DNA from: an uncultured Gemmatimonadaceae bacterium
GTDB taxonomy: Bacteria; Gemmatimonadota; Gemmatimonadetes; Gemmatimonadales; Gemmatimonadaceae
DNA length: 64,000 nucleotides
Assembly: GCA_963740355.1 (NCBI GenBank)
Contig: CAVUDW010000003.1
Location: 1,024,001 to 1,088,000 of the forward strand
Reading direction: 5' to 3'
The notes under the pieces were generated by a model, which was given only the letters and a program-made list of their open reading frames with translations, did not search any database and was not told where the DNA came from. Positions within the stretch are counted from its first letter, which is position 1. Each line of letters opens with the position of its first letter. The translations under genes were made by a program, and so were the position numbers. Shown here one piece after another: positions 16,824 to 33,792 of the stretch.

Positions 16824-17492
16824 CTAGAACTGGAGCCGGACAAAATCGTACACGGGCCACGGTCCGGTGAGACGCAGCGTGAGACCTGGCGACCGGACGT
16901 CCTCCGCAGCGACCTCAGCCGCAAAGCGATCCCACGATACGCGCTCCACGAGGAACGCCTCCGTCGCGATCGTTGTCCCGTCACCCACAGTATCGGAGGA
17001 GACAGGCACAGTGGCCGCCGCGTAACGTCGAAGCGAGCGGAACGATTCGACCGCCGCAGCTGACGGCGGCAAGACCGAGGGGTCGGACGTGGCGCCGGCG
17101 GCGTCGCGATCCGCCGTCACGCGGGCTGCGATCCGACCATCGATGTAGGCGAGCCCATCCGCCAGTGCTACGGCGTGCAGCTCGAGCCACTGAAGGGCGC
17201 TGGCGGCCGTGCGGAACGTCGTCAACGGCGGCGCTGGAATGATCGTGGCTGTCCGCGACAGCGCTGCAATCGCCGCGTGGTGCTCGAGCAGCACGGCCTC
17301 GCTGACGGTGTCGTGATGCTTCGCGCACGGGCGCACGATGGCCGCCACATCACGGAACGAGATGCCATGCGCACCGGCGCCCGAGAGTCGGACCGCGTCA
17401 GTGATCGCGTTGGCATGCACCACGCCGATCAGGCGGAAAGCGCCAGCGCGCGCGGGCGGCACCACACCCGTACCCATGCTCGGCGTCGGCAC
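16824..17492 (-). CDS. GvpL/GvpF family (gas vesicle accessory)-like protein
   Basis: LIGVV..ISFRDVAAIV..LLEHHAAI..PAPPLTTF..AFLVERVSWDRF..LTGPWPVYDFV; GTG start overlaps the corA stop. Confidence 0.72.
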   Translation of the reverse strand: MPTPSMGTGVVPPARAGAFRLIGVVHANAITDAVRLSGAGAHGISFRDVAAIVRPCAKHHDTVSEAVLLEHHAAIAALSRTATIIPAPPLTTFRTAASALQWLELHAVALADGLAYIDGRIAARVTADRDAAGATSDPSVLPPSAAAVESFRSLRRYAAATVPVSSDTVGDGTTIATEAFLVERVSWDRFAAEVAAEDVRSPGLTLRLTGPWPVYDFVRLQF

Positions 17493-18622
17493 TAGAGCAA
17501 TTCCCACTTGCGCAGCAACCACACCAGGAAGACCCCAAGCCCCAGCTGCACCGCAAGCATGATCCAGAATCCGTGCGAATGATGCGAGAGCGGGATGTCC
17601 TCGAAGTTCATCCCCCACATGCCGCTCACGACGACGAACGGCACGCTCAACGTGGCAATCACGCTGAGGCCCTTCGTCACCTGGCCGAGTCGATTCGAGA
17701 CCTGCGAGAGATAGCTGTCCATGACGTTGGCCAGCAGTTCACGGTAGGTATCCACCGAATCGTTGATGCGCAGCACGTGGTCGTAGATGTCGCGAAACCA
17801 GACCTGTGATTCCGGCGGCAGGAATGGCGTCGGTCGATTGGTCATGATGTTGAAGACTTCGCGCTGTGGCATCAGGTGTCGCCGCATCGACAGGACGAGC
17901 CGCTTCACGGCAAACACGTCGCGCATGACTTCCTGGTCGAAACGCTGATACACCCGCTCCTCGAGGCCATCCACGAACTCGTCGATCTTGTCGAGCACGG
18001 GGAAGTACTCATCGACGGTGATGTCCATCAGTGCGTGCGCCACCCGCTCGACACCGCGCTGCAGCTGGTCGGGATTGGCGATCATCCGGTCGTAGACGAC
18101 ATCCACCGGCACACTGGGGCCGGCGTGCACCGTCACCAGCAGGTTCTTCGCAAGGAAGAAACAGAGGTTGTACGTCTCGACATCGTACGGATCATCGGTG
18201 GTGTCGCAGAACCGAAGGCCGCGCACGATCACGAAGAGCGAATTCTTGTACTCGTCGATCTTGACGCGACTCTGCGGATTGAGCGCATCCTCGACCGCCA
18301 GCGGATGGAAGTCGAAGACCTTCTCGAGCAACGCGACCTGATGCCGACTTTCGTTGTCGATGTCGACCCAGAGCGTGCCGTTGATCGTGCCGCACCGCAC
18401 CAGGTCGCGCAGCTCCACCGGATGCAGATCGGTGCGCACCGTGCCATCGCCCATCATGTAAGCGATCCGTGGCACACTGCTGGCTGCCACGACCGGCCGA
18501 ACCGGCTCACCCCGCGCGGCGGCCTCGTTCGCGTCCACCTCCGCCAGGCTCATCGACCGCGTGTCGTCACCACGGCGAAGCCGCGGCGGCATCGGTGTCT
18601 TCCGGCGGCGACTCTTGCTCAT
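17492..18622 (-). CDS. corA: Magnesium/cobalt transporter CorA
   Basis: LWVDI, FHPLAVEDA, WGMNF signature, two C-terminal TM helices; start taken at MSKSRRR. Confidence 0.92.
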   Translation of the reverse strand: MSKSRRRKTPMPPRLRRGDDTRSMSLAEVDANEAAARGEPVRPVVAASSVPRIAYMMGDGTVRTDLHPVELRDLVRCGTINGTLWVDIDNESRHQVALLEKVFDFHPLAVEDALNPQSRVKIDEYKNSLFVIVRGLRFCDTTDDPYDVETYNLCFFLAKNLLVTVHAGPSVPVDVVYDRMIANPDQLQRGVERVAHALMDITVDEYFPVLDKIDEFVDGLEERVYQRFDQEVMRDVFAVKRLVLSMRRHLMPQREVFNIMTNRPTPFLPPESQVWFRDIYDHVLRINDSVDTYRELLANVMDSYLSQVSNRLGQVTKGLSVIATLSVPFVVVSGMWGMNFEDIPLSHHSHGFWIMLAVQLGLGVFLVWLLRKWELL

Positions 18623-18674: not shown

Positions 18675-19601
18675 CTATCGCAACGCGCGGAGATGGGTGA
18701 CGCAGGCCTCACCGAGTCGCTCCGGCACGTACCCCCCTTCAAGCGCGCTGACGACGCGTCCGCCACACCACCCCTCGGCGCGAGTCACGACCAGTCGAGT
18801 GAGCTGCTCGATGTGCTCCATCTCGAGCGTGAACCCGCCCAACGGATCGCCGGCCAGGCAGTCGAATCCGGCGGAGATCAGCACCAGATCGGGGGTCCAA
18901 ACATCCGTCGCCGCATCGATGGCTTGCGTCAGGGCATCCACATAGACCGATGGTGGCAGCGCGGGCGTCATCGGCACGTTCCAGACGCTGCCATGCGGAC
19001 CGCGGTCCGATGCCGCACCACTGCCCGGATACCAGGGGGACTGATGCATGCTGACGAAACGAATCGCGGGATCGTCCTGCACCAGATCCTGCGTGCCATT
19101 GCCATGATGCACATCCCAGTCGACGATCAACACGCGATCGGCACCATGCCGGCGGCGGGCATAGTGGGCGCCGACGCCGATGTTGCCGAAGAGGCAGAAG
19201 CCCATCGCAGCGCCACGCAACGCGTGATGCCCCGGCGGCCGCACGGCACAGAAACTCCGCGTCACGGAGCCGTCGAAGGCCCAGTCGATGCCATCCAGCA
19301 CGCAGCCGACGCCGGCCGTCGCCGCATCCCAGCTTCCCGGACTGACGGGCGTGTCGGGATCCAGCTGCCCACCGCCAGTATCCGCCATCACGCGCACCCG
19401 CTCGACATAGCCTGCGTCGTGAGCCAACGCGATTTCAGCAGCCGTCGCATGCCGACCTTCACGATGCTCGATCGTGTCGAAGAGATCGAAGTCGTATCGC
19501 AGCGCGCGCGGAATGGCACGCAGCCGCCCGACGTGCTCGGGGTGATTCCAGCCGGTGTCGTGGCGACCACAATCCGAATGCGAGATGTATGCAACGGTCA
19601 C
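18675..19601 (-). CDS. Histone deacetylase family (AcuC/AphA-like) Zn-dependent deacylase
   Basis: HPEH, RPPGHHA, GFCLF, DWDVHHGNGTQ, SAGFD, LEGGY; GTG 19601 overlaps the upstream stop (GTGA). Confidence 0.93.
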   Translation of the reverse strand: MTVAYISHSDCGRHDTGWNHPEHVGRLRAIPRALRYDFDLFDTIEHREGRHATAAEIALAHDAGYVERVRVMADTGGGQLDPDTPVSPGSWDAATAGVGCVLDGIDWAFDGSVTRSFCAVRPPGHHALRGAAMGFCLFGNIGVGAHYARRRHGADRVLIVDWDVHHGNGTQDLVQDDPAIRFVSMHQSPWYPGSGAASDRGPHGSVWNVPMTPALPPSVYVDALTQAIDAATDVWTPDLVLISAGFDCLAGDPLGGFTLEMEHIEQLTRLVVTRAEGWCGGRVVSALEGGYVPERLGEACVTHLRALR

Positions 19602-20971
19602 GTCAGACCTCTCCAGCGGCGTAGCGTCCACGACGCCACCAGCGACAGCAGCGCGAGCGCCAGCAACCATCGGGGATCGAGCGAGGCACGCCAACTCTCC
19701 TGCACCGGCGCGAGGCTCGCGGCGCGAACGGAGGGCAGGCCAAGATCGCGTGCCAGTGCCGCCACAGGCGCGGCGTCGACGGTATCGTGCTCGGCTGGCG
19801 TGGTGTGTGTCAGTGGCATGGTGAGTGGCACAATGCTCGATAGCAGCGCAGTCCACCAGCGGCGATGTGCTGCAGGAGCGTCGTCATTGCCTGCCATGCG
19901 CCACAACCAGGAGTTGTCGTAGCCTACCTGCAGCACGCGTCCGGCGCCGACACGTCGAGCGGCGACTGCCACACGACCGTCGCGGCTTTCGAGCGCAATG
20001 CTTCCCGCAGCCAGCGACGCCACTGGCACGAGATCGAGGCCGTGGCGCGGCTCGACGGACGCTTCCGCGCCGAGTTCACCGACGATGGTGGCGCCAGGTG
20101 CCCCCGCGCGCAGTGAAGCCAGACCCGCAAGTCGCGCCGCTTCGCCAACGATCACCAGTCCGCCACCGTCGCGCACGAACTGCGGTAACGCCGCGATCGC
20201 TGATGCAGGTGCGCCAGGAAGCAGCAGCACGATGGCGTGACGGCTGCGCGCAGGAGTTCGCGTCGCACCCTGCGAAATCGTGACGCGAGGCGAGAGGGTG
20301 ACCGCCATGTCGACGGGCCACCCCGCTTCCTCCAGCGTCGACACGAGGAAGCGCGACTCCCAGGTTGCATCACCAAGCACCAGAACGCGCGCCGCGTCGG
20401 GCGATCCTGCCGCGAGCGACGTCGCCGAGGCCCGCACGGTCGGCGCATCGACACGCAGCAGTCCCTGCACCGGCCCCGATTGAGAACGACTTCCACCCGT
20501 CGCGAGAGTCAGCGAATCAAGTGCGCCCGCGCCATCACTGACCGATGCGGCCAACGAATCGGTGCCCGCCACCAGGATCCGTGTGCCGCCCAGTGCGCGC
20601 CATTCATTCTCTGCAACAACCGCCAGCGCCGGGAGCGGCGATGCGGTGCTCAGTCGAACCGTGTGACCACTGCCCTTCAGCGCGCGCAGGGCGGCGCGTG
20701 CGTGCGACGACGGAACGCCGCTGAGCGACACATCGAGCGTGTCCGTCGGCGTGCGCAAGAGGCTCGCGAGGCCGGCATCGAGTGTTCCCGCCCTCGTGAC
20801 AGTCGACGCAACGCCAGTCGGGCTCACTGGCGCCAGCAACCGCCACAGCAGCAACGCCATGCACGTGAATGCCACACCGTGCAACACCGCGCCAATGCGC
20901 TGCAGCGTCCGATCGGTGGACACGCCACCCATCGGCAGCGAGGCAGCGGCCGCGTCAGCGCGTGAGGGCAT
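19598..20971 (-). CDS. Hypothetical membrane protein of the MoxR/DUF58 operon
   Basis: N- and C-terminal hydrophobic helices; FVRDGGGLVIVG and GAGRVLQVGYDNSWLWRM resemble a GATase-like/trimerisation domain; start 20932 or 20971. Confidence 0.7.
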   Translation of the reverse strand: MPSRADAAAASLPMGGVSTDRTLQRIGAVLHGVAFTCMALLLWRLLAPVSPTGVASTVTRAGTLDAGLASLLRTPTDTLDVSLSGVPSSHARAALRALKGSGHTVRLSTASPLPALAVVAENEWRALGGTRILVAGTDSLAASVSDGAGALDSLTLATGGSRSQSGPVQGLLRVDAPTVRASATSLAAGSPDAARVLVLGDATWESRFLVSTLEEAGWPVDMAVTLSPRVTISQGATRTPARSRHAIVLLLPGAPASAIAALPQFVRDGGGLVIVGEAARLAGLASLRAGAPGATIVGELGAEASVEPRHGLDLVPVASLAAGSIALESRDGRVAVAARRVGAGRVLQVGYDNSWLWRMAGNDDAPAAHRRWWTALLSSIVPLTMPLTHTTPAEHDTVDAAPVAALARDLGLPSVRAASLAPVQESWRASLDPRWLLALALLSLVASWTLRRWRGLT

Positions 20972-21563
20972 ACACCACCAGGTTCACGCCGAAGCGCGTG
21001 TTGTCCACCGAGAGGAATCGCTTGTTCTCGGGATGGAACGACCACTCGCTGCTGTAGTCCTTGTTGCTGTACACGACCGCCAGCCGACCATTGCGTTCGA
21101 TCCCCTGCAGGTGATCGTGCACCAGGTTGTCGCCCCATCCATTCAGCTCGTGCGAGGTGGTGGGTGGGCCATCGCGGAAGGTGAAGAACGCCTTGTACAG
21201 CGGATGTGTATTCGGGATCGGCTTCAGCGGTCCCAAGGCCTGCGTCAGCTCTTCGGTGCAGGTCTTGTGAAAGACGCCGTCCACATCGTGGTTGTGATCA
21301 TCCACGAAAAGCAGCCCGCCGCGATCGCAGTACTTCCGCAGCATCGCGCGCTCCGCGATGGTGAAGCGCACCGGCAAATGGCCGGTGAGGTATGCCAGCG
21401 GGTACCGCAGCAACGCTTCCGACGACAGCGGCACGATCGCCCCTGACGGCGCCACGTCGACATTGGTGTAGCGCGCCACGGCGTCGATCACGTTGGCGGC
21501 CAGCAGCGGTGCGGAATCCCAGTCGCCCGATTCGTACTGCACGGTGGCGAAGGTGAACTTCAT
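20955..21563 (-). CDS. DUF4159 domain protein
   Basis: FTFATVQYESGDWD, YLTGH, GGLLFVDDHNHD, YSNKDYSSEW, FGVNLVVYALT; ATGA overlap with the upstream gene. Confidence 0.85.
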   Translation of the reverse strand: MKFTFATVQYESGDWDSAPLLAANVIDAVARYTNVDVAPSGAIVPLSSEALLRYPLAYLTGHLPVRFTIAERAMLRKYCDRGGLLFVDDHNHDVDGVFHKTCTEELTQALGPLKPIPNTHPLYKAFFTFRDGPPTTSHELNGWGDNLVHDHLQGIERNGRLAVVYSNKDYSSEWSFHPENKRFLSVDNTRFGVNLVVYALTR

Positions 21564-23686
21564 GGCGTCCCGCCGAGCCACAGTGCCGTTCCGTCACCGC
21601 GACGCCATGGCGCAAGCGCCAGTCGTCGCACGCGCAACATTGCCGCGGTCGCATCGCGTCGCGCTTCCACGGCGTCGATCGTTTCGCCGATCGCGGCCGC
21701 AAGGCTCGGTGCGGTTGCCAGTGCATCCAGTCGCACCAAGCGCAGCGCATCGAGCGCCGTCGCGTCCTTCTCGACCAACAGGCTCAACCCCTGCAGTGCG
21801 CGCTCTGCCAACCGCCGCTCCGGCGCCGGCAGAGCGTCCAGCGCACGACGCTGCTCGAACTTCGCCGAGTCAGTGCCGGTGAGGCGAATCTTCACCAGGT
21901 CCACCACAGCCGCTGGCGGCGTGCCGCGCAGGTACACGCGTTCAGCAGAACGGGCCCGCTGGATCGCGGCCAGCGCGCGGCGCATCGGGTCGAGCGCGTC
22001 GCGCGGGACGCCACCCTGCAAGGCGCGCGTCGCGTCCCACATCGCGTTGTACGCTTCCAGCAGCGGACGATTCACCGCCACCACCGGCGTTTCGTCACCG
22101 TGCGAGTCGAGCATGCCACTCATGCCGCCGGTTGCCGCATCCGCCGCCTTCAGTACCGACTCCGGCGTATTGGTTGCAGCAAGGTCGCTGGCGGTGTGTT
22201 CATGACCGTCCCCAGCGAAGTGTGCATGTTCGCCGCTCGGGCTGTCGCCGAGGCGCGCGAAGACGATGTCCGCGACCTGCTTCCGGAGCCGCGCCTGGTC
22301 ACTGCCGATGCGCTGTGATTCCGTCAGCATCGTGGCACGGTCGATCCTGGGCATCCGTGCCACCAATCGCTCAGCCATCAGCAGCAACATCCGCTGGCTG
22401 AGCACACTCTTGTCCACCGGCGTGGGAGGCAGCTGCTCGACGGCCACCGAGTCGCGCTCATCGGGTCGCGGAATGCGAATCGTGCGCGTCTCGCTGGTGC
22501 CGAGCGAGGGACCGCTGAGTGTGTTGCCATCATGTGCGGTGAGTCGCACGTGCATCAGGTCACCCGGCTTCAGGTGCAGCGCGCCGAGGTCGAGCGTGGT
22601 CGCCATCGTGAGGTCACGCCCAAGTGAACCGCGACGTTCGTCGATCGCGCCAGACTTGAACGTGAACTGCTCGCCACCGCCGCTGGAGATGATGTACTCG
22701 ATGCGTGCGTCGCGCAGACCAAGGTCGTCGTGAATTGTGCCGGATACCCTGATCCTGGCCGTCGTATCGAAGACCAGCGTATCGCTCGCTGGCAGGACCA
22801 GGGTGGCGACTGGCGCGGAGTCGGCGACGGGTGTCACCAGCAGCCAGCGCTCGCCAGCCGCGTCTCGCAGGCGAACAGCAATCGGTGCCGTGCCGATGCG
22901 CACGTCACCGCGCCACCCGCCGTCGCGCGGTGCGGTGGTCACTGCTCGCGGCGTACCGGCACCACTGTCCGATGACTCCTGCACGAGCATCGTGGCGTTG
23001 CCCTGCGCACCAATGGCGTCGATGCGAATGAGGCTGCCGACAAGCGCTGACACGGTTTGTCCGAACGCCAGCCCGCGTTCAGGGCGACCTGTGTACGCCG
23101 GCGGCACGAGTACGGCTTCTGCCATCACGCGGCCTGGAGGCGGCGCCGTCGTATCGCGCTCCACACGCAGCGCTGGCGCCACGTTTGCCGCGATCGGCCG
23201 CGCACGCCACGGGTAGATGCCGGCGGCCACGAGCAGCACTGCGGCCGCCAAGCGGCGAAGCACCGCTGCGCGTCGCCCACCCATCGCACGTCCAACGTTC
23301 TGCTGCCAAGGGGTACTGGCAGTGAAATCAGCCAGCCGACGCTGAACGGGATCGGCATCATTCACCGGCTGCTGCTCAGCCAGCGTCACCAATGCGTAGC
23401 GCAGCTCCGGCGCTTGTGATTCAGCCCACAGCGCGGCGTCGAGCAGTGCCAGACGCGCTGGCTGCAGCACGCGCCACCGCCACCCACCAACCGCTACGGC
23501 ACCACTGATCGCCACAGCCCAAACAATTCCTATCGCCGGCACACCGAGCAGCACGCGCGCCAGTGCGCCGATTGCAAGCAGACTGCCAAGTGCCGCCAGC
23601 GTCCAGACGGCGACGTCTCCGATGGCCAGCGTGCGGAGCGAGGCTCGCAGCTGGTCGAGTCGTGATGCGAGTTGGTGTGGTGTCAT
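21560..23686 (-). CDS. Large membrane-anchored protein, DUF4175-like
   Basis: N-terminal TM helices, PPAYTG, DDLGL Ig-like segment, helical C-terminus with LSQRMLL and YNAMWDA. Confidence 0.7.
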   Translation of the reverse strand: MTPHQLASRLDQLRASLRTLAIGDVAVWTLAALGSLLAIGALARVLLGVPAIGIVWAVAISGAVAVGGWRWRVLQPARLALLDAALWAESQAPELRYALVTLAEQQPVNDADPVQRRLADFTASTPWQQNVGRAMGGRRAAVLRRLAAAVLLVAAGIYPWRARPIAANVAPALRVERDTTAPPPGRVMAEAVLVPPAYTGRPERGLAFGQTVSALVGSLIRIDAIGAQGNATMLVQESSDSGAGTPRAVTTAPRDGGWRGDVRIGTAPIAVRLRDAAGERWLLVTPVADSAPVATLVLPASDTLVFDTTARIRVSGTIHDDLGLRDARIEYIISSGGGEQFTFKSGAIDERRGSLGRDLTMATTLDLGALHLKPGDLMHVRLTAHDGNTLSGPSLGTSETRTIRIPRPDERDSVAVEQLPPTPVDKSVLSQRMLLLMAERLVARMPRIDRATMLTESQRIGSDQARLRKQVADIVFARLGDSPSGEHAHFAGDGHEHTASDLAATNTPESVLKAADAATGGMSGMLDSHGDETPVVAVNRPLLEAYNAMWDATRALQGGVPRDALDPMRRALAAIQRARSAERVYLRGTPPAAVVDLVKIRLTGTDSAKFEQRRALDALPAPERRLAERALQGLSLLVEKDATALDALRLVRLDALATAPSLAAAIGETIDAVEARRDATAAMLRVRRLALAPWRRGDGTALWLGGTP

Positions 23687-24897
23687 GCGCGCTTCCGCAG
23701 CAGCAGCTCGAGCGCGGCCAGTGCCAGTGCGAGGCCGACGAACCAGACGGCCAGCGGCGACGAAAGTGTAGCCTGCGACGCCGTCACACTCCGCGTACGC
23801 GTCGGTGCCCGCAGCCAGTCAGGCGCCGCGCCAACCGTCCCCTGCTCCCGGTCACAACTCGTGACGAGCGCCGCCAGCCACGCCTGCGCGGCCAGCGACA
23901 GGGTCTGATCGCCGGCCGCCGGCACAGCAACCGCCACCCGAAGCAGACATCCGCGTCCAATCGACACGCGCCACACGGCCGGCGAACCGTCAGCCCACCA
24001 CCCAATCGCCTGAGCCCCACGCAACGCGACATTCGAGCTGTCCACTCCAAGCGGCGCAATCCATGTCGCGGAACCGACGGCGAGTCCCCGCAGCGCCGGC
24101 GCACCAGCCAGCGCACGTGACGGCCACCAGACGATCGTCGCTCCGGCGCGTGCGGCGCTGGAATCATCAGCCGTCAACGGTGCGCCCCGAACGATTCGCG
24201 TCGTCACGCGCGCGACGCTGTCGCCGAGCAGGTGTGCCGTCGCGGCGATCGGATCATCGCCGTCAGCGCGCACAGCGATTGGTCCGCGCGCCACGGCGCT
24301 GTCCTTCGCGATCGCCACCGGAACGACGACGATCGAGTCAGGCACCAGCGCACGAATCGACGCTGTGACCGGATCGAGGCTGCGTGGTGAGAAGCGCGAC
24401 GCGATGGCCACCCGCAGCGTCGTCGATCGTTCGGCCAATGAATCGCGAACACGCACCAACCGCCCAAGCCCCGCGCCCAACGATGCCACATCGGCTACTG
24501 ACGGTGTGACCGCACTCGGCAAACCGATCGCGGTGGCCGAATCGTACGCGATGACGACATCTGTCGCTGCGAGCGTCGAGAGCACGGTGCGCTGCGCGTC
24601 GAGTGGCAAGCTGCGATCGAGCAACAGCAGCGTGCGCGTCGGCACACGACTGCCAGTCAACACCGGTTGCGCGACACCCAGTGCCAACAATGCAATCACC
24701 AGCAGGCGCAACAACATCCACCAGCGATCCATCGGGATCTTCTGCAGCGTCGTCGCTTCGAGCATGCCGCCCGGCAGGAAGCGCGTGGTGGCCAGTGTCA
24801 GCGCACGCGGCCTCTGTCGCGACAACAGATGCGCGGCGACCACGCCGAGCATGCCAAGCGCGCCCGCCGCCAGTGCCCACGGCGCGAGCCATGTCAC
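23683..24897 (-). CDS. BatA-type N-terminal double-transmembrane domain protein
   Basis: MTWLAPWAL..AHLLSRQRP..TRFL..LLRLLVIALLALGVAQP, followed by a degenerate vWA-like LLLDRS. Confidence 0.8.
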   Translation of the reverse strand: MTWLAPWALAAGALGMLGVVAAHLLSRQRPRALTLATTRFLPGGMLEATTLQKIPMDRWWMLLRLLVIALLALGVAQPVLTGSRVPTRTLLLLDRSLPLDAQRTVLSTLAATDVVIAYDSATAIGLPSAVTPSVADVASLGAGLGRLVRVRDSLAERSTTLRVAIASRFSPRSLDPVTASIRALVPDSIVVVPVAIAKDSAVARGPIAVRADGDDPIAATAHLLGDSVARVTTRIVRGAPLTADDSSAARAGATIVWWPSRALAGAPALRGLAVGSATWIAPLGVDSSNVALRGAQAIGWWADGSPAVWRVSIGRGCLLRVAVAVPAAGDQTLSLAAQAWLAALVTSCDREQGTVGAAPDWLRAPTRTRSVTASQATLSSPLAVWFVGLALALAALELLLRKRA

Positions 24898-25781
24898 GCC
24901 ACCGCTCCAGTGCCCGAGGCGGCGCGCACCAGCGTACGCACTGCGTCGGCTGGTGGCTGATCATCCACGATTTCCACGTAGCGCGCGCCGGTTGCCAACC
25001 AGCGGTTCCGCATCGACGCACGAAACGCCGCAAAACTCGCCTCGTACGCGCGGTGCGCACTCTTCGAGAGCGGGCGTCGCAGCGCCTCGTCTTCCGGATC
25101 GACGGCCACCGCCCGTTCAACGCCCAGCGAGAGCTCGGCACGTGACACAAGGTGCACAACGATCACCTCCACACCGCGCGCGATCAGCGAGGCACCGCGC
25201 TGCAGCAGCGCGTCAGCATCACCCAGCAGGTCGGAGATGATCACGACACGCTCGATACCGCGCATGCCGTCCAGCATCGGCGCGACGGCGGCCACGCCAT
25301 CCACCTCGACGGCGTCGACCACACGGATCATTTCACGCACGACATCGCCCCGCGCGCGTGGCGCCAGCCGACGCGCACCCGAGGCGCGCGCGATCACCAA
25401 TCCGACAGGGTCACCGGCACCGCGTCCCACCGCAGCCAGCCCGACGCACAGCATGCGCGCCTGTCGCCACTTCGTCTCCCCGCCCACCGCAGCGCCCATC
25501 GAGGCCGAGCCGTCGAGCACGATCAACGTCGGCGACGTTGCGATATCGGGTGCCAGGCGGACGTAAGCGCGGTCAGTGCGCGCCAGCAGCTTCCAGTCCA
25601 GTCGCCGCGGATCGTCACCTTGCCGATAGGGGCGATACTCGGTGACTTCGACATTCGGGCCGATGCGTTTCGCGGTGTGCGCACCCACGTTGGTGGTACG
25701 CGGGCGCAGGCGTGCCATCCATCGCACGCCGCGCAACGCATCGAGCAATGCGCCGTATTCGTGAAAGCCGGGCGCCGCCAT
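24894..25781 (-). CDS. DUF58 (vWA-associated) protein
   Basis: EYRPYRQGDDPRRLDWKLLAR, LDGSASM (MIDAS-like), IISDL. Confidence 0.9.
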   Translation of the reverse strand: MAAPGFHEYGALLDALRGVRWMARLRPRTTNVGAHTAKRIGPNVEVTEYRPYRQGDDPRRLDWKLLARTDRAYVRLAPDIATSPTLIVLDGSASMGAAVGGETKWRQARMLCVGLAAVGRGAGDPVGLVIARASGARRLAPRARGDVVREMIRVVDAVEVDGVAAVAPMLDGMRGIERVVIISDLLGDADALLQRGASLIARGVEVIVVHLVSRAELSLGVERAVAVDPEDEALRRPLSKSAHRAYEASFAAFRASMRNRWLATGARYVEIVDDQPPADAVRTLVRAASGTGAVA

Positions 25782-25795
25782 GACCTGCGACGGCG

Positions 25796-26828
25796 TCAGC
25801 GAGGAAAGGCGCCGCGTGGTGGCTCGATACGTGCCACCAATTCCTTCACGATGACGTCCGACGCAATGCCATCCGCCTCGGCCGCGTAGTTCGGAAGCAC
25901 GCGATGGCGAAGCACTGGAATCGCGACGCGCTGCACATCGGCCGGCGACACTGCCACGCGTCCGGCCAGCAACGCGTGGGCCTTCGCGCCAAGGATGAGC
26001 GCCTGGCCCGCGCGTGGGCCGGCACCCCAGCGCACGTACTTCGTCACCAGATCCGGCGCACGGGAGTCACCAGGACGAGTCGCGCGCACCAGCTGTGCTG
26101 CATATCGCAGCACGGTGTCTGAGGCGGGCACGTCGCGCGCCATCTTCTGCAGCGCACGGACCTGCAACGCATCGAGCACGGGCGTCAGCGGTTCGGAGGC
26201 AGCGCCGGTGGTGCTGCGCAGGATGCCGACTTCATCATCCTCGCCAGGGTAATCCACACGAATGTCGAACAGGAACCGATCCAGCTGTGCTTCAGGCAGC
26301 GGATATGTCCCTTCCTGCTCGATCGGATTCTGCGTGGCGAGCACGAAGAACGGTGCCGGCAGCGGCATGGTCTGGCCTGCCGCCGTCACGCGGTACTCCT
26401 GCATCGCTTCGAGCAGCGCCGCCTGCGTGCGTGGTGGCGCGCGGTTGATTTCGTCGGCGAGCACGATGTTGGCGAAGATCGGCCCACGCACGAAGCGGAA
26501 GGCGCGATGCCCGCGTGGCCGAGTCTTCCTCGAGCAACTCGGTGCCCGTGATGTCGCTTGGCACGAGGTCCGGGGTGAACTGGATGCGGCGAAAATCCAG
26601 CTGCATCGCCTCGGAGACGGCACGCACCATCATCGTCTTCGCCAGCCCCGGCACACCCACCAGCAACGCATGGCCACCGGCCACGATCGCGAGCAGAATT
26701 TCGTCCAGTGCCTCGGTCTGGCCCACGATGCGGCGCGCGACTTCCGCGCGCATTGCCTGCGCCGCGCCGATCAGTGCTGCTGCCTCGTTTTCGCTCGTGC
26801 CACGTGACACACCCATCGGTTCCGCCAT
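25796..26828 (-). pseudogene. MoxR family AAA+ ATPase split by a +1 frameshift near 26513 (real lesion or sequencing error)
   Basis: 5' frame has IVGQ, GVPGLAKT, RIQFTPDLVPSDITG; 3' frame has GPIFANIVLADEINRAPPRTQAALLEAMQE, ATQNPIEQEGTYPLPEAQLDRF. Removing one base at 26513 restores EEDSATGHRAFRFVRGPIF. Confidence 0.88.
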
Positions 26829-27151
26829 CACTTGAGCGGCTGCCGGCGACGCATGTGCAGCAGCAGCGTCGAACCGTCCTTCACACCAGCGTCCGCCAAC
26901 GATTTCGCTTCATCGCGGATTTCGAACCCACCGAGCTTCGTCACCATGTCGCCTGGCACCGGCAGATCGGGTGCCAAAACGGCCAGGGCACGCGCCTTGA
27001 CGGTGGCGACCGATGTCTCAGGTGCGGCAACGACTTTCACCGCATCCCACGCCTCCAGCAGCTGGACGCGGATCGTGATGTCGGCGGCGCTGCCGGTACC
27101 AAGCGTGATCGCCTCCGCAGGGGTGCGGAGCTGGGTGACGAAGGGCGGCAT
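26828..27151 (-). CDS. Ubiquitin-like (beta-grasp; YukD/EsaB-like) protein without C-terminal GG
   Basis: ITIRVQ..PETSVATVKARA..KLGGFEIRDEAKSLADAGVKDGSTLLLHMRRR parallels the ubiquitin pattern; TGATG overlap with moxR; start uncertain. Confidence 0.7.
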   Translation of the reverse strand: MPPFVTQLRTPAEAITLGTGSAADITIRVQLLEAWDAVKVVAAPETSVATVKARALAVLAPDLPVPGDMVTKLGGFEIRDEAKSLADAGVKDGSTLLLHMRRRQPLK

Positions 27152-27230
27152 GTGCGGTTGGACGGAGCGAGGGAACAACGGGTTGCCAGCGGCGACGGTG
27201 CTCGTGTCGGCCGAGCCGCGGACAGATGAT

Positions 27231-27575
27231 CTACGCGGCGGGGGTGCCTTCAGTTGCGTCAGCGACCGGGGCTTCGAGCGCTGGGGCCGGTGGCGGCGCC
27301 ACGTACCTCGGCAGCGTCGACAGAAAGCGGGCGATCTGCTGGTCGAACATGTAGCTCGATCCGGTGACCCGCGTGCCATCAGGAATCGCCGCCACCCCGA
27401 ACAGCACATCTTCCCCGCCCTGTCCGCGCAGCGCGACGAACGTCGGCCCCGACTTCTCGGGGAAGGCGGCGTAAACGCCGCTCCGCAGGGAGAAGAAATC
27501 CGTCGCGGCCGCCAGCACCGCGGCGCCGTCGAGGGAGGTGTTGGCTTCCTGCTGGGTGCGGATGGTCGGTGGCAT
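27231..27575 (-). CDS. Hypothetical protein (114 aa)
   Basis: Globular alpha/beta-looking core with a Pro/Ala tail; TAGATT-N6-ATG start context. Confidence 0.7.
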   Translation of the reverse strand: MPPTIRTQQEANTSLDGAAVLAAATDFFSLRSGVYAAFPEKSGPTFVALRGQGGEDVLFGVAAIPDGTRVTGSSYMFDQQIARFLSTLPRYVAPPPAPALEAPVADATEGTPAA

Positions 27576-27619
27576 GGCCGGAATCTAGCCGCACCCGGAT
27601 GGCTGGCGAATGGACGCCC

Positions 27620-28279
27620 CTAGAAGATCCGGAACGACAGCATCACGGGCACCAGGTAGAGCGGCCCGACGGACGACTGGGCCCGCATCACATCGGCCGA
27701 GAGGACGAACCGGGAGTCGGGCTTGCCAAGCGGTGCCGAGGCCCCGACGCGCCATCCCCAACCCGACGCAGTGGTTCGGATGTAGGCGATGGACGCAGGA
27801 GCGGAGGGCGAGCCGGTGGCACCGTCCACGTGTGAGCTGCGAAGCCACACCGGACCGGCGCGAAGGTGGAGTGGGACACTCGCGAACGGTTCGAATTCGA
27901 TCGCTGGTGCGAAGCCGAGCATCGACGATTGGGGCCCACGCTCGCGGATTGGCTGCTGGCCGCGCGTTCCGAGCACCGTATCGGAGGCGAATGGCCACCC
28001 GAGCAGGTCAACGAAGTCTCCGCCGCTCGGCGCGGCGGCGAGCGCCTCGACGCGAAGTTGCGCGAAGGTCGAGAGTCGGAGGCTCACCGCCGCGCTGGCA
28101 GATATACCACTGCGGCGGGAGGGGTTGCCGAAGGGCACATCGGTGACCGCGCTTCCACCGATTCCGACCGCAAACGACGTGGTTCCTGGTTCGGACCGCT
28201 CCGTCTGTCCGCGGAGGGATGGCGCGGCGGCAACGATCACAGCAAAGCCCAGCGAAAGCAGTCGGAGCGACACGAACAC
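27620..28279 (-). CDS. Hypothetical exported / outer-membrane beta-barrel-like protein
   Basis: Signal peptide, alternating beta-strand pattern, terminal Phe (VMLSFRIF). Confidence 0.55.
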   Translation of the reverse strand: MFVSLRLLSLGFAVIVAAAPSLRGQTERSEPGTTSFAVGIGGSAVTDVPFGNPSRRSGISASAAVSLRLSTFAQLRVEALAAAPSGGDFVDLLGWPFASDTVLGTRGQQPIRERGPQSSMLGFAPAIEFEPFASVPLHLRAGPVWLRSSHVDGATGSPSAPASIAYIRTTASGWGWRVGASAPLGKPDSRFVLSADVMRAQSSVGPLYLVPVMLSFRIF

Positions 28280-28442
28280 CTCGGAGGAGACCGGGATCCT
28301 GGCGACGGCTGATTGGTACCATGATAAACCTATCGGGTTCCACCGCGTTCCCGCTCACCCCCTGATCGGCGCAGGCACGGTGCAGCTTCGCCCGCTCACC
28401 CCATTGCTCCGTCTGCTCGTTCACGCCCCTCGCCCGTCACAT

Positions 28443-28652
28443 TCAGCCCCGAAAGAGCGTCACCCGGTGCGACCCGTCGCAAAAGGGCGCCTCGCGCGAG
28501 GCGCCACACCGACAGAGTGCCATCGAGTCCGCTTCGCGGATCAGTGTGCCATCGGCCGACTCGAGCCGAACCGGTCCCTGCAATACCAGCGGGCCGTTGT
28601 GTCGCAACCGGATCAGCAGTCGTGGCGTATTGTCATTGTCGGCTCCATTCAT
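28443..28652 (-). CDS. CDGSH iron-sulfur domain protein
   Basis: NGPLVLQG..ALCRCGASREAPFCDGSH. Confidence 0.9.
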   Translation of the reverse strand: MNGADNDNTPRLLIRLRHNGPLVLQGPVRLESADGTLIREADSMALCRCGASREAPFCDGSHRVTLFRG

Positions 28653-28697
28653 GCAAGCAATTTACGTTGCTACCGACACCACTATCACGGAGAGACG

Positions 28698-29165
28698 ATG
28701 ACCGAAGTCGCGCCACGCAAGATCCTGATCGCCAGTTTCGCCACTCCGGGCGGCGCCGACGCCTCCCTGCACCTTCTGAAGGCCGCACCAGTCAGCCTCG
28801 GCAATGTCGCCGTCGTGAAGCGCGACGCGAACGGCAAGGTCGAGTTCACCGAGTCGCAGGACTGGGGCATCGGCAAGAGCGCGCTGGTTGGCGCGATTGC
28901 GGGTTTGCTCCTGCCGGGTGTGGGCACGATCACCATGGCCGCCGGCGGCGCACTGGCCGCGTATTTCATCGACCTTGGCTTTCCTGACCCGCTCCTCAAG
29001 CAGATGGGCGAAGGGCTCGACCAGAACAGCTCGATGCTGGTCGCACTCGTCGACGAGGCAGGCCTGGCGCGTGCCAGCGAAGTGATCTCGCAGGCGGGCG
29101 GCACCGTGTCCGGCACGAGCACCGAGACGGACCTCGCGGCCGCCATGGCGACGATGAAGCGGTAG
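28698..29165 (+). CDS. DUF1269-like membrane protein
   Basis: GGAGAG RBS; AVVKRDANGKV..GALAG-type glycine zipper..DLGFPD..SSMLVALV. Confidence 0.75.
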   Translation: MTEVAPRKILIASFATPGGADASLHLLKAAPVSLGNVAVVKRDANGKVEFTESQDWGIGKSALVGAIAGLLLPGVGTITMAAGGALAAYFIDLGFPDPLLKQMGEGLDQNSSMLVALVDEAGLARASEVISQAGGTVSGTSTETDLAAAMATMKR

Positions 29166-29258: not shown

Positions 29259-30611
29259 TCAGACCGTGATCCGCTGCTGTACCCAATTGCGGACCTGGTC
29301 CATCGCCACGCGAACCTGCGCCAGCGAATCACGTTCACGGATGGTCACGCTCTGGTCATTCGCCGATTCGCTGTCGATGGTCACGCAGAACGGCGTGCCA
29401 ACTTCATCCTGACGGCGATAGCGCTTGCCGATGCTGCCCGTCTCGTCGTAGTCGGTGTGGAAGGCACGCCGCAATTCGTCGGCGAGCTTCGTCGCCATCT
29501 CGGGCTGGCCATCCTTCTTCGTCAGCGGGAAGACCGCAGCCTTGATCGGTGCCAGCGCCGGATGCAAGCCAAGCACCACGCGCCCTTCGTCCTCACCGGC
29601 CACTGACTCCTCGCGGTAGCCGTTCACCAGCGCGGCCAGCGTGGTACGATCCGCACCCACCGACGTCTCGATCACGTACGGCAGATACCGCTTGTTTGCC
29701 TGCTGGTCGAAATATTCGAGCTTCTTGCCGCTGAACTGCTGGTGCTGCGACAGGTCGAAGTCGCCGCGATTGTGGATCCCTTCGATCTCCTGGAAGCCCA
29801 GCGTACCACCGAAGTCGAAGGTGATGTCGAACGCCGCGCGGGCATAGTGCGCCAGTTCACCCGCTTCATGCTGGTGGTACTGGAGCCGATCCGGCGACAA
29901 GCCGATCGAGTGGTGCCAGGCCAGGCGATCGGCCTTCCACTTCTCGAAGTGCTCCATGTCCGTGCCCGGCTCGACGAAGAACTGCATCTCCATCTGCTCG
30001 AACTCACGGGTGCGGAAGATGAAATTGCCCGGCGTGATTTCGTTGCGGAACGCCTTGCCGATCTGCGCGATGCCGAACGGCACCTTCTGGCGACAGCTCT
30101 GCTGCACGTTGAGGAAGTTCACGAAGATGCCCTGTGCCGTTTCCGGTCGCAGGTAGATCGTGCTCGCACTTTCCTCGACCGGCCCCATGAACGTCTTGAA
30201 CATGAGGTTGAACATCCGCGGCTCGGTCAACTGACAGGCGTCGTGCTGGCCCGGCATCTTGCTCGGCTTCTGCGGGCAACGCGCATCTTCCAGCTTGTCG
30301 GCGCGGAAGCGGCCCTTGCAGGTCTTGCAATCGACGAGTGGATCGGTGAAACCTGCGACGTGACCGCTGGCTTCCCAGGTCTTCGGGTGCATCAGGATCG
30401 CGGCATCGAGTCCTTCGACGTCATCGCGCAGGCGGACCATGCTAGTCCACCAGAGATCCTTGAGGTTCTTCTTCAGCTCCACACCAAGTGGGCCGTAGTC
30501 CCAGACGCTGCCGGTGCCGCCGTAAATTTCGGAGCTCTGGAAGATGAAGCCGCGGCGTTTGCACAACGACACGAGCTTGTCCATCACATCGGGATGGGCG
30601 CTGGCTGACAT
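29259..30611 (-). CDS. glyQS: Glycine--tRNA ligase, alpha2 (GlyQS) type
   Basis: [53 protein letters not shown]. Confidence 0.96.
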
Positions 30612-30865
30612 CGGCTGACCTCTGAGTTTGGCGCCCCTGGATGCCGCGAACAGGCGTCGCGACTGGGTGGGGTGCACTGGTCTGGACAAGTTACTGGGCA
30701 CACGAAGTGCCTGACGGCGGCCAGAGCGGCGACCTCACCCGCTTGCCAGAGGGCGGCGCACCGTCGATTCTGCTGCCAGCGATGTCGCGGGGACCTGAAG
30801 CATGGTCGGCGCGTACAACGCCCAACCGCCTCTTCCCAACCTTTCCAGAATCCTGAGAGTCGAAC

Positions 30866-32275
30866 GTGCTGCGGTGGCGTGATGCGAAGCGAGTGATGTA
30901 TGCCCTTGTGGCCGCGCAACCAGCCCTGCTGGCAGCCCAGACCAACATCAGCGGGATCGTCCGCGACAGTCTGGCCAACAAGCCGTTCATGGGTGCGACG
31001 GTACAACTGGTGCCGAGCGCAACTCCGTGGGCGACTGGTCGCACCATGAAGACCGACTCCATCGGTCGGTACGCGTTTGCCGGCGTCCTCCCCGGCCGCT
31101 ACGTGCTCGGCTTTCAGCATCCTCGACTCGACTCGCTTGGCATGGACGCCGTCAGTCGCACGGTGGATGTCTCGAAGGCTGTACCGATCCTGCGAGCCGA
31201 CCTGGCACTGCCGAGTGGACGGACGTTCGTGACGACGCTCTGCGGGGCACGCACGGACAGCACGACTGGTGCGCTGATCGGTCGTGTCTTCAATGCAGAC
31301 GACGGCGCGTCGCTGACCGGCGGGAGCGTGGTGGTACGCTGGGCTGAACTTCGGATCGACAACGGCGGTGTGCGCAGCGTGCCGCAGCAGGTGGTGGTGT
31401 CGTTCGGCAGCGATGGCCGCTACGTCGCATGCGGTGTTCCGACCGATGCGCCCCTGCAGGTGCAGGCGCGCACCGGAAGTGCCACGGCCACCGATCCTGC
31501 GGCCAAGCTGGTGACGAGTGGTGAAATCGAGGTCGCGTTCACACCGCAGATTCCGCTGCTGCACCGCGACCTCTTGATCGCCACGCCGGTCGCTGACTCG
31601 ACGCTGGCTGCAGCCAACGCCGCGCGATTGAGCGGACGGGTGATCGCTGCCGACGGCACGCCCGTCTCAGGTGCGCGCATCGCAGTGCACGGCACGACGA
31701 TCGCGACGACCGCGGATACGAATGGTGTCTTTCGTGCGAGCGGAATTCCGCCCGGCACGCGCGCCCTGGATGTCACCGCGATCGGCTACGCGCCGGCACG
31801 GGCCTCGGCCGATTTCCGACCGAATCGCGAGTCCGCGATCACGGTACGGATCGGGGGCAAGGTTGCCACCCTTGGCGCGGTCAAGGTGACCGGCACCAGT
31901 GGCGCCGATCGCAGCGGGTTCATCGCGCGACGTGCACGCGGCGTGGGCTACTTCCTCGACGCCAATACGATGGAGCAGCGCGGCGCACAAAGTGTGTCGC
32001 AGGCACTCCAGACGGCCCCATCACTGCGCAGCAACGGTTTCGACACCGCCAATCCGACGCGGCCGCGGATCTCCGGTCGCGGGAATTGCACACCGACCGT
32101 CTATCTCGACGGATTGCCGATGCGCGATGGGCTCGGGGGTGTCGACGACATCGTCACCATCCGCCGTGTGGGTGCTGTCGAGGTGTATGCGAACCCGACC
32201 GAGGCGCCACCACAGTACGCCAGCAGGAGTTCGTGCGCGACGGTGCTGGTGTGGACGCGGGCGTACGTGCCTTGA
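30866..32275 (+). CDS. Exported protein with carboxypeptidase-regulatory-like domains and C-terminal TonB-plug-like domain
   Basis: Signal peptide; SGIVRDSL..GATVQL..DSIGRY; SGRVIAADGTPVSGARI; C-terminal C-P-VYLDG..VEVY..PPQY..CATVLVWT. Confidence 0.75.
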   Translation: MLRWRDAKRVMYALVAAQPALLAAQTNISGIVRDSLANKPFMGATVQLVPSATPWATGRTMKTDSIGRYAFAGVLPGRYVLGFQHPRLDSLGMDAVSRTVDVSKAVPILRADLALPSGRTFVTTLCGARTDSTTGALIGRVFNADDGASLTGGSVVVRWAELRIDNGGVRSVPQQVVVSFGSDGRYVACGVPTDAPLQVQARTGSATATDPAAKLVTSGEIEVAFTPQIPLLHRDLLIATPVADSTLAAANAARLSGRVIAADGTPVSGARIAVHGTTIATTADTNGVFRASGIPPGTRALDVTAIGYAPARASADFRPNRESAITVRIGGKVATLGAVKVTGTSGADRSGFIARRARGVGYFLDANTMEQRGAQSVSQALQTAPSLRSNGFDTANPTRPRISGRGNCTPTVYLDGLPMRDGLGGVDDIVTIRRVGAVEVYANPTEAPPQYASRSSCATVLVWTRAYVP

Positions 32276-32358: not shown

Positions 32359-33792
32359 ATGCGACCTGCCGCCTACCGAAAGCGCTTGCTACCGTTGCTG
32401 ACGGTGTGCGCAGTCACTGCGTCGCGAGGGCTGGCGCAGACGACGGTTCACGGCATCGTCACGGACAGCCTCAGCGGTCGCCCCTTCGCCGGTGCGACCG
32501 TGGAGTTGGTCCCCACGCGCACGCCATGGTTAGCCGGGTTCACAGCCCGCAGCGATTCGGCCGGCCGTTACAGCATCGCAGCTGTTCCCGCAGGCAGCTA
32601 CTACTTCGGCTTCCAGCACCCGCGGCTGGACTCGCTTGGGTTGGATCCGGTGACCAGTACGCTCGAGGTGCGATCGGCCTCGCCACGACTGACAGCCAAC
32701 CTCGCGCTGCCGAGTGCGTACACCTTCGCCGCTATCCTCTGTGGTGCGCGACGCGGGAGTACGACCAGCGCACTGGTCGGCCGCGTGTTCGATGCCAACG
32801 ACGGACGCGCGATCAGTCGCGGGACGGTGCTTGTTCGCTGGGGTGAGTTGAGCGTTGGCGACAGTGGCTTGCGCAACGACAATGCACAACGCACAGTCGC
32901 CGTCCGCAGTGATGGTCGATACATCGCGTGTAACGTGCCGACCGATGCTCCGCTGCTGATCCAGGCGATCAGCGGCAACCTCACCGATCCCAGTTGGACG
33001 ACATCACGACTGGTGAGTGGTGGGATCGAAGTCACGTTTGCGTATGACAAGCCGCTGCTTCATCGCGACCTCTATGTCGGCATGAGCGAGACCGATAGTG
33101 CCGCGCCGAGCACATCACAGATCGGAAGCGTGGGTCCAGTTCGCAAAGGGTCGTCGCGCCTGGTGGGGCGCGTAGTCAACGAAGATGGCGCCCCAGTCGT
33201 CGGCGCTCGTGTGCTGGTGCGAATTGCAGCAGCGCAGGCGGTCAGCGATTCCAGTGGCGTCTTCCGAATCAGCGGCTTGCCAATCGGGACCCAGTCGGTG
33301 GAAGTCACTGCCCTTGGCTTTGCGCCGACGAACACCGGGGTCGATCTGCTTCCCGATGTCGAGACGCCGCTCACGTTGCAGGTCGCGCGACGCGTGCAGA
33401 CGCTGGAGGAAGTAAATGTCGTGGCGCGACGGGCGGACCCGTCTGGTTTCTATGCGCGGCGCGCGAAGGGACTCGGCTACTTCGTCGACTCGGAGCAGAT
33501 CCGGAAGTGGGGCCCGCCGGACCTCGGCAGCGCGCTTTCCATGGCGCCTATGCTGCGAAAGAACCTGACAGGAAGAGGCGGTTGCACGCCAGTCTTATTT
33601 CTCGACGGGGTTCGCATCGACTATATGCTTAACGAAGTCCTGAATGGGTTGGAGCTGGGGGGAATCGAGGTGTATGCAAACCCCGCAGATATCCCGCCAC
33701 AATTTGCCTCACCCGGCAGTCGCCCCGGCGCGAGGACGCTGTCTGGCGGCTGCGCCGTCATCGTGATCTGGACACTCGCCTTCGTCCGCTGA
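32359..33792 (+). CDS. Tandem paralog of the preceding carboxypeptidase-regulatory/plug-like protein
   Basis: Shares FQHPRLDSLG, GRVF.A.DG, DGRY.AC.VPTDAPL, SG.IEV.F, PLLHRDL, EVYANP...PPQ and C.V.WT. Confidence 0.75.
   Translation: MRPAAYRKRLLPLLTVCAVTASRGLAQTTVHGIVTDSLSGRPFAGATVELVPTRTPWLAGFTARSDSAGRYSIAAVPAGSYYFGFQHPRLDSLGLDPVTSTLEVRSASPRLTANLALPSAYTFAAILCGARRGSTTSALVGRVFDANDGRAISRGTVLVRWGELSVGDSGLRNDNAQRTVAVRSDGRYIACNVPTDAPLLIQAISGNLTDPSWTTSRLVSGGIEVTFAYDKPLLHRDLYVGMSETDSAAPSTSQIGSVGPVRKGSSRLVGRVVNEDGAPVVGARVLVRIAAAQAVSDSSGVFRISGLPIGTQSVEVTALGFAPTNTGVDLLPDVETPLTLQVARRVQTLEEVNVVARRADPSGFYARRAKGLGYFVDSEQIRKWGPPDLGSALSMAPMLRKNLTGRGGCTPVLFLDGVRIDYMLNEVLNGLELGGIEVYANPADIPPQFASPGSRPGARTLSGGCAVIVIWTLAFVR

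Follow-up and report, generated by a model that had tools for sequence, protein, structure and literature searches.

A gene for a ubiquitin-fold protein with a basic tail

The window analyzed here is a stretch of 64,000 nucleotides from the genome of an uncultured Gemmatimonadaceae bacterium (GCA_963740355.1, contig CAVUDW010000003.1, positions 1,024,001 to 1,088,000), and the gene under study is an open reading frame (ORF) at 26828 to 27151 that encodes a protein of 107 amino acids (aa), here called Ubl for ubiquitin-like. A gene for a 114-aa protein, here called the partner, lies directly upstream of Ubl and a gene for a MoxR-type AAA+ ATPase lies directly downstream, every gene involved being on the minus strand. 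An initial annotation of the locus had pointed to a ubiquitin-like pattern in Ubl and to a C-terminal tail, RRRQPLK, that lacks a di-Gly. The tail was confirmed by translation of the ORF, and the pattern was confirmed by Pfam, by a profile of the Ubl family, and by an AlphaFold2 model with a beta-grasp fold. The ubiquitin-fold part is preceded by an N-terminal extension of approximately 24 residues.

Pfam returned YukD (PF08817) as the best family for Ubl, with an E value of 0.0018 and a score of 19.5 bits that fell below the gathering cutoff of 27, as well as a subthreshold match to DUF2604. When 21 members of the Ubl family were searched at E ≤ 0.1, YukD was matched by 17 (best E value, 2.3e-6), DUF2604 by 10, UBL_UBAC1 by 7, and ubiquitin by 4, and a precomputed PF08817 label was attached to two of the database homologues. 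NCBIfam gave a weak match to the EccD N terminus (17.3 bits against a cutoff of 94.95). Searched against PDB sequences, the family profile matched FAT10/ubiquitin D with an E value of 1.8e-5, followed by ubiquitin variants, ISG15, and BilA. The AlphaFold2 model, built from a 21-row alignment, had a pLDDT of 83.9 and the order beta-beta-alpha-beta-beta-beta, and its best matches among solved folds were ubiquitin, NEDD8, and BilA (8tyz_B and 8tyx_A), with a target TM of approximately 0.8 and an identity of 20 to 24%. The beta-grasp fold expected by the initial annotation was thus found in a model that matches solved ubiquitin-like proteins.

Database searches returned 87 homologues of Ubl, most of them exactly 107 aa long and, where a taxon was given, all labelled Gemmatimonad-, and in the ESM Atlas both Ubl and the partner fell solely in unnamed Gemmatimonadota clusters. 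We conclude that the 107-aa ORF is a genuine conserved gene for a ubiquitin-fold protein. Two kinds of candidate relatives were considered and set aside. Seven homologues were inspected as possible fusions; in five of 133 to 173 aa (the usual length being 83 to 117 aa), the additional N terminus was Arg rich, lacked partner motifs, and looked like the product of a miscalled start, and the other two looked frameshifted. Giant proteins with 5 to 16 Ubl repeats were rejected as family members, as their many repeat matches were weak and their sequences were K-rich, of low complexity, and eukaryote-like in appearance. Three such proteins of 1378 to 1662 aa (P0208, P0209, and P0217) carry 13 to 16 tandem ubiquitin-like repeats and match the Ubl profile through weak repeats.

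The tail of the Ubl family follows the pattern RRRxPx[R/K], has no terminal Gly, and occupies the place of LRLRGG in ubiquitin. The pattern was surveyed in a 22-row alignment (A1) in which 20 intact sequences had ends of this type and the exceptions, P0082 and P0083, carried two residues more; removal of the frameshifted-looking row P0086 from A1 gave alignment A2. Ubiquitin, NEDD8, FAT10, ISG15, and BilA, which gave the best structural and the significant profile matches of Ubl, are conjugated via a C-terminal Gly by E1 and E2 enzymes. Ubl differs from them in having no such Gly, and no E1, E2, or JAB genes were detected by Pfam among 24 proteins of the window and 29 proteins from the loci of four relatives. 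Because Ubl lacks a C-terminal Gly and no E1, E2, or JAB genes lie nearby, its canonical adenylation or conjugation is unlikely.

Among known proteins that are not conjugated, YukD/EsaB are among the closest to Ubl, both by sequence and by the lack of conjugation. The likeness lies in a small stand-alone beta-grasp domain without a C-terminal Gly-Gly, and YukD has been reported, in the portion of the source consulted, to be a noncovalent assembly factor (PMC12637312). Ubl differs in its subthreshold score, in its own conserved tail, and in its own constant neighbor. Moreover, families of the type VII secretion system (T7SS), such as the EssC/EccC ATPase, were detected by Pfam neither among the window proteins scanned nor in the loci of relatives, and WXG100 had no match in the host genome (94.5% complete), such that the features that define YukD/EsaB were not found. 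The same scans upheld the initial annotation where it had seen no E1, E2, JAB, or T7SS genes in the vicinity.

The partner is the invariant neighbor of Ubl

Ubl was present in 40 of 41 close relatives. Within a 151-genome sample of the phylum, the Ubl profile matched 30/31, 72/72, and 2/2 genomes in the three families of the order Gemmatimonadales (104/105), gave weak matches in two families of other orders, and gave none in the remaining families; the tally includes one unpublished genome, G086. Nearly all genomes with a match had exactly one. The partner profile matched 31/31, 72/72, and 2/2 genomes of the same three families (a tally that includes the unpublished genomes G086 and G125). Here and in every count within the order, the genomes sampled are not independent of one another. 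We conclude that nearly every genome of the Gemmatimonadales carries Ubl, in a single copy.

The partner gene lay directly upstream of Ubl on the same strand in 66 of 66 loci, comprising 13 from the genus of the window, 34 from other genera of the family, and 19 from sister families; in 3 of the 66, Ubl was too divergent for tblastn and was located by HMM positions. The common gene order across the order was GlyRS (glycyl-tRNA synthetase), then partner, Ubl, and a histone deacetylase-type (HDAC-type) gene in direct succession, and then an MR/MLE enzyme gene followed by PriA. In the window, the partner and Ubl ORFs are separated by a gap of 80 bp. The initial annotation had placed before Ubl a 114-aa hypothetical gene with its own promoter-like motif; the gene is there, but a sigma-70 consensus scan of 25500 to 28800 on both strands found 0 promoter sites. 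The terminator-like sites found were on the plus strand, inside moxR. The annotation had further named, as a check, conservation of the 114-aa gene, Ubl, and moxR as a neighborhood, and it had treated the 114-aa protein as a bystander. Conservation held for the pair of partner and Ubl and did not extend generally to moxR. We conclude that the partner, not MoxR, is the invariant neighbor of Ubl.

The partner consists of a conserved core of approximately 90 aa, with the motifs LRGQGGEE and GS[ST]..FDQ..ARFL..LP, and a variable Pro/acidic tail. It had 511 homologues, no family in Pfam, and no match in NCBIfam, and it did not match the START or SRPBCC families in sequence. The partner profile had a single match among PDB sequences, at an E value of 0.68, and Foldseek found no match in the PDB to the partner model at E ≤ 0.001. 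The partner, which is a second unnamed family, may have a KA1/helix-grip-like fold; such a fold carries no functional information. A complex prediction for partner residues 1 to 95 with Ubl scored 0.00, was run without controls, and was not used as evidence either way.

A gene for a 219-aa protein adjoins the partner gene on its 5′ side. The protein has a hydrophobic N terminus and a C-terminal aromatic residue, and it matched no Pfam or NCBIfam family. It was not detected by tblastn at E ≤ 0.001 in 12 loci of the genus (L002 to L012 and L032), most of which include under 1.1 kb of sequence on the 5′ side of the partner gene.

Partner homologues precede beta-grasp genes in sister orders

Ubl-like proteins of approximately 100 aa that are related to the Ubl of the window were found in sister orders (L072 to L075), where they end in F-[R/K]-G with a single terminal Gly. 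Their genes lie in a different context, with Na:Ala symporter, DeaD-type helicase, and serA-like genes, and no E1- or JAB-like genes were found among the neighbors scanned. A weak partner-like ORF was present directly upstream of the Ubl-like gene in 6 of 6 loci, and for two of these ORFs hhalign gave probabilities of 85% and 57%. Stronger, full-length partner homologues (E values of 1e-7 to 2e-12) were located elsewhere in the same genomes, not beside the Ubl-like gene.

These stronger homologues lay directly upstream of moaD, the product of which ends in VAGG, followed by moaE and in most cases by moaA, in all seven loci fetched (L175 to L181, from genomes G087, G103, G114, G134, G162, G078, and G110, respectively). 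MoaD belongs to the ThiS family, and Ubl differs from it, as from the MoaD-related Thermus thermophilus protein 1V8C, in having neither a ThiS/MoaD Pfam match nor a Gly-Gly end; the part of PMC9650054 consulted, which deals with 1V8C/MoaD, contains nothing on a C-terminal domain. The genome of the window has its own moaD (ending in VAGG), moaE, and moaA elsewhere, with no partner gene upstream. As a separate observation, the operons for molybdopterin synthase in these lineages may have, in the moaD-linked homologue, an accessory gene that has not been described before.

The three partner subfamilies could be aligned over their full length. In the partner tree, the Gemmatimonadales group and the group linked to Gly-ended Ubls were well-supported clades (95/89 and 100/99), and 6 of the 7 moaD-linked rows formed a third clade (96/98). 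As homologues of the partner stand directly before moaD (7/7) or before a Ubl that ends in F-[R/K]-G (6/6), the family appears to be a partner dedicated to beta-grasp proteins.

The MoxR cluster is a lineage-specific neighbor

The genes around Ubl are listed in Table 1. Beyond the HDAC-type gene, the minus strand continues with CorA, a GvpL/F-like gene, a Ser/Thr kinase gene, the MR/MLE enzyme gene, and PriA.

Table 1. Genes around Ubl in the window, in 5′ to 3′ order of the minus strand
Feature	Position	Strand	Basis or remark
Glycyl-tRNA synthetase (GlyRS)	29259-30701	-	Pfam
CDGSH protein	28443-28652	-	Pfam
219-aa protein, no family	27620-28279	-	ORF list and Pfam scan
114-aa partner protein	27231-27575	-	Conserved core, then variable tail
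Ubl, 107-aa ubiquitin-fold (beta-grasp) protein	26828-27151	-	ORF, translation, homologues, AlphaFold2 model, profile
MoxR-type AAA+ ATPase, two frames	25796-26831	-	Pfam AAA_3, AAA_lid_2
DUF58 protein	24894-25781	-	Pfam
BatA-N membrane protein	23683-24897	-	Pfam
708-aa protein	21560-23686	-	Member of six-gene cluster
DUF4159 protein	20955-21581	-	Pfam
457-aa protein	19598-20971	-	Member of six-gene cluster
HDAC-type amidohydrolase	18675-19856	-	Pfam Hist_deacetyl, E 3e-79

The stop codon of Ubl overlaps a GTG (-4) or an ATG (-1) start in the MoxR frame, the minus strand reading ...AAG TGA TGG... (AAGTGATGG), as the initial annotation had noted from the letters TGATG. The moxR gene of the window is split: Pfam placed the N-terminal half of AAA_3 in an ORF at 26292 to 26831 and the C-terminal half, together with AAA_lid_2, in an ORF at 25796 to 26623. 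The split is caused by one extra base near 26514, where the window reads GCCACGCGGGCAT and four relatives, in which the gene is in a single frame, read GCCAC-CGGGCAT. No near-identical contig across 26514 was listed in four contig runs, with fragmentary coverage of 25700 to 27700. The frameshift may be either an assembly error or a real inactivating mutation.

To the 3′ side of Ubl, relatives differed in gene content. The MoxR cluster followed Ubl at 13 of 13 loci of the window's genus. The other genera of the family were represented by 34 genomes, of which 16 had the cluster in this place, 17 had the HDAC-type gene directly after Ubl, and 1 was rearranged. All 19 genomes of the two sister families had the HDAC-type gene directly after Ubl and none had MoxR there, with the pair of partner and Ubl kept in every one. 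The six-gene MoxR/DUF58/BatA/DUF4159 cluster lies exactly between Ubl and the HDAC-type gene, and its presence or absence at this site varies across relatives. In three genomes in which Ubl does not adjoin MoxR (G021, G026, and G035), the pair was kept, the best MoxR matches (approximately 60% identity) and DUF4159 matches (30 to 35%) were on other contigs or far away, and no orthologous six-gene cluster was found in the regions around those matches. The insertion site fits a single insertion of the cluster followed by losses.

The cluster was also surveyed from its own side, in 80 species-representative loci found via its DUF4159 protein, a sample that overlaps the 66 loci above; all were titled Gemmatimonad- except one "bacterium" and one Candidatus Kuenenia. 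Ubl was directly upstream of MoxR in 46 loci, neither Ubl nor the partner was present in 7, and 27 were not assessable. Ubl and partner HMMs at E ≤ 1 found nothing in the 7 loci (14 to 20 kb) and found the genes in two positive-control loci, and Ubl was located elsewhere in the genome in 5 of 5 such genomes tested. We conclude that the MoxR adjacency is lineage specific and that the linkage does not extend beyond a portion of a single family.

Across the Gemmatimonadaceae, conservation of the cluster includes its 708-aa and 457-aa proteins, which had no significant Pfam, NCBIfam, or PADLOC family; nor did PADLOC assign a defense family to Ubl, the partner, MoxR, or DUF58.

Two further features of the window stand apart from Ubl. 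The GvpL/GvpF-like gene (16824 to 17618, minus strand; Pfam E value, 5e-19) lies between CorA and the Ser/Thr kinase gene, its position is kept in many relatives, and no other gas vesicle genes were found in the annotated stretch around it. Tandem ORFs of approximately 470 aa at 30866 to 32275 and 32359 to 33792, both on the plus strand, are visibly similar in sequence, and the first carries CarboxypepD_reg domains and a TonB-receptor Plug domain with no barrel domain match.

Partner and Ubl as a probable two-gene module

We favor, as probable though well short of certain, the interpretation that partner and Ubl together make up the conserved functional unit, a single-copy module of two genes that belongs to the core of the Gemmatimonadales and whose products act together. 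The module would consist of a possibly KA1/helix-grip-like partner, 114 aa in the window, followed by a Gly-less ubiquitin-fold protein with the invariant basic tail. Members of the upstream family always stand directly 5′ of a beta-grasp gene: in sister orders this gene encodes MoaD or a Ubl with a terminal Gly, and in the Gemmatimonadales it encodes the Gly-less Ubl. The two proteins would cooperate noncovalently, with the partner binding or presenting Ubl, perhaps via the Ubl tail. The module may have descended from a Gly-terminated, carrier-type Ubl system, and the MoxR/DUF58/BatA/DUF4159 cluster would be a later arrival next to Ubl. The cluster separates Ubl from the deacetylase-type gene in some members of a single family, in which cotranscription of Ubl with MoxR is therefore probable.

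Several points weigh against this interpretation. The whole block from GlyRS to PriA is syntenic across the order; adjacency within the order would by itself be weak evidence, and the sister-order loci carry the weight. The partner-like matches beside the Ubl-like gene in those loci are weak (HMM E values from a small search, 3e-5 to 7e-3), and the mutual order of the three partner subfamilies, including the closest relative of the Gemmatimonadales subfamily, was not resolved by the tree (79/75). Physical binding between partner and Ubl would be read from gene order alone. Moreover, where the six-gene cluster exists, Ubl usually adjoins it (46/53 assessable loci), and 45 of 76 junctions have a start codon of the MoxR frame that overlaps the stop codon of Ubl. 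Ubl and MoxR are thus probably tightly coexpressed in the Gemmatimonadaceae, and a recruited role for Ubl is possible in that family.

Such a role is the substance of the first alternative, in which Ubl, itself not conjugated, would serve the downstream MoxR AAA+/vWA system (DUF58, BatA) as an adaptor or a substrate, at least in the Gemmatimonadaceae, where it would have been recruited in a lineage-specific manner. The downstream MoxR, DUF58, BatA-N, and DUF4159 genes resemble MoxR AAA+ systems with vWA/DUF58 proteins (RavA-ViaA type) and are Bat operon-like. We know of no described Ubl component of MoxR/vWA systems. Our literature searches (MoxR/Ubl/beta-grasp and Gemmatimonadetes/YukD) turned up no account of the Ubl family and none of a MoxR operon that includes a Ubl, nothing was found on DUF4159 together with MoxR, and a Ubl in a MoxR operon is not described in the part of PMC7159879 consulted. 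The initial annotation had proposed the same adaptor or substrate role, and its picture of a Gly-less beta-grasp protein packed against moxR holds in the genus. The constant adjacency in the genus, its frequency in the other genera and in the cluster survey, and the overlapping junctions all speak for the alternative. A general functional link, however, was not supported: outside one family, Ubl homologues lie beside other genes (MoxR in 0 of 19 sister-family genomes), which is the pattern that the annotation itself had named as a sign that the moxR adjacency is incidental. The alternative is further opposed by the HDAC-type gene taking the place of MoxR in half of the genomes from other genera, by the pair persisting without an orthologous cluster in G021, G026, and G035, by the 7 of 53 assessable cluster loci that lack Ubl and partner while Ubl is encoded elsewhere, by an insertion site that fits one insertion and later losses, and by the frameshift in the MoxR gene of the window. 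We consider the MoxR adaptor model unlikely, and the RNA or ribosome and metallohydrolase alternatives below are weaker.

By analogy with a known pair, the partner and Ubl could instead form a nucleic acid- or ribosome-associated factor, with the Arg-rich tail touching RNA. A START-domain protein and the Ubl RnfH form a pair linked to smpB, according to the portion of the source consulted (PMC1779556), and the architecture of RnfH (RatB) with its START neighbor (RatA) in beta- and gammaproteobacteria resembles that of partner and Ubl. The Ubl tail is strongly basic, a DeaD/DbpA-type helicase gene lies within approximately 2.5 kb in 4 of 4 annotated sister-order loci, and canonical RnfH was not found in the host genome at E ≤ 0.1. 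However, none of the 21 Ubl members matched the RnfH Pfam family (PF03658) at E ≤ 0.1, and by fold and profile Ubl is nearer to ubiquitin/FAT10 than to RnfH. The partner differs from the START protein in its core of only approximately 90 aa and its lack of START or SRPBCC sequence matches, and no smpB linkage was seen. The sister-order helicase gene is on the opposite strand or separated by other genes, and a tail of only seven residues says little about RNA binding. We regard a role of this kind as improbable.

An equally improbable, broader proposal is that beta-grasp carriers or modifiers (MoaD, the Gly-ended Ubl, and an exapted Gly-less, Arg-tailed Ubl) have a dedicated, previously unrecognized partner in the 114-aa family and that the last of the three has been wired into the MoxR/vWA operon as an adaptor in the Gemmatimonadaceae. 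If that were true, the MoxR-wired Ubl would be a bacterial parallel to the Ubl/UBX adaptors of eukaryotic AAA+ machines.

Finally, it is very unlikely that Ubl regulates or is acted on by neighboring metallohydrolases through noncanonical tail chemistry, such as trimming or amide linkage. In favor of this reading, the HDAC-type gene follows Ubl directly in the sister families and in 17 of 34 other-genus genomes and comes after the cluster in the window and in other loci, a Zincin_1 peptidase gene precedes the pair at most loci of the two sister families, and the invariant tail sits where ubiquitin has LRLRGG. Against it, the HDAC adjacency belongs to an extended stretch of synteny made up of unrelated housekeeping genes (GlyRS to PriA) and is lost in sister orders, in which partner and Ubl remain paired. 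Zincin_1 was detected at none of the loci from the family to which the window belongs, and Ubl has neither a terminal Gly nor a ligase-like gene close by.

We therefore return to the module of partner and Ubl as the preferred interpretation. Few non-conjugated bacterial Ubls are known, chiefly YukD/EsaB and RnfH, and little is understood about them. To these the present analysis adds a lineage-wide Ubl family with an invariant basic tail and, as its constant companion, a second unnamed family. The same arrangement appears to be carried by cultured Gemmatimonas strains. The junction of Ubl and MoxR is mainly a matter of gene-order history, and it cautions against annotating a "Ubl-MoxR system" from a single genome. 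The presence of the companion family beside moaD in related orders raises the question of whether this small protein binds beta-grasp proteins and acts on their tails.

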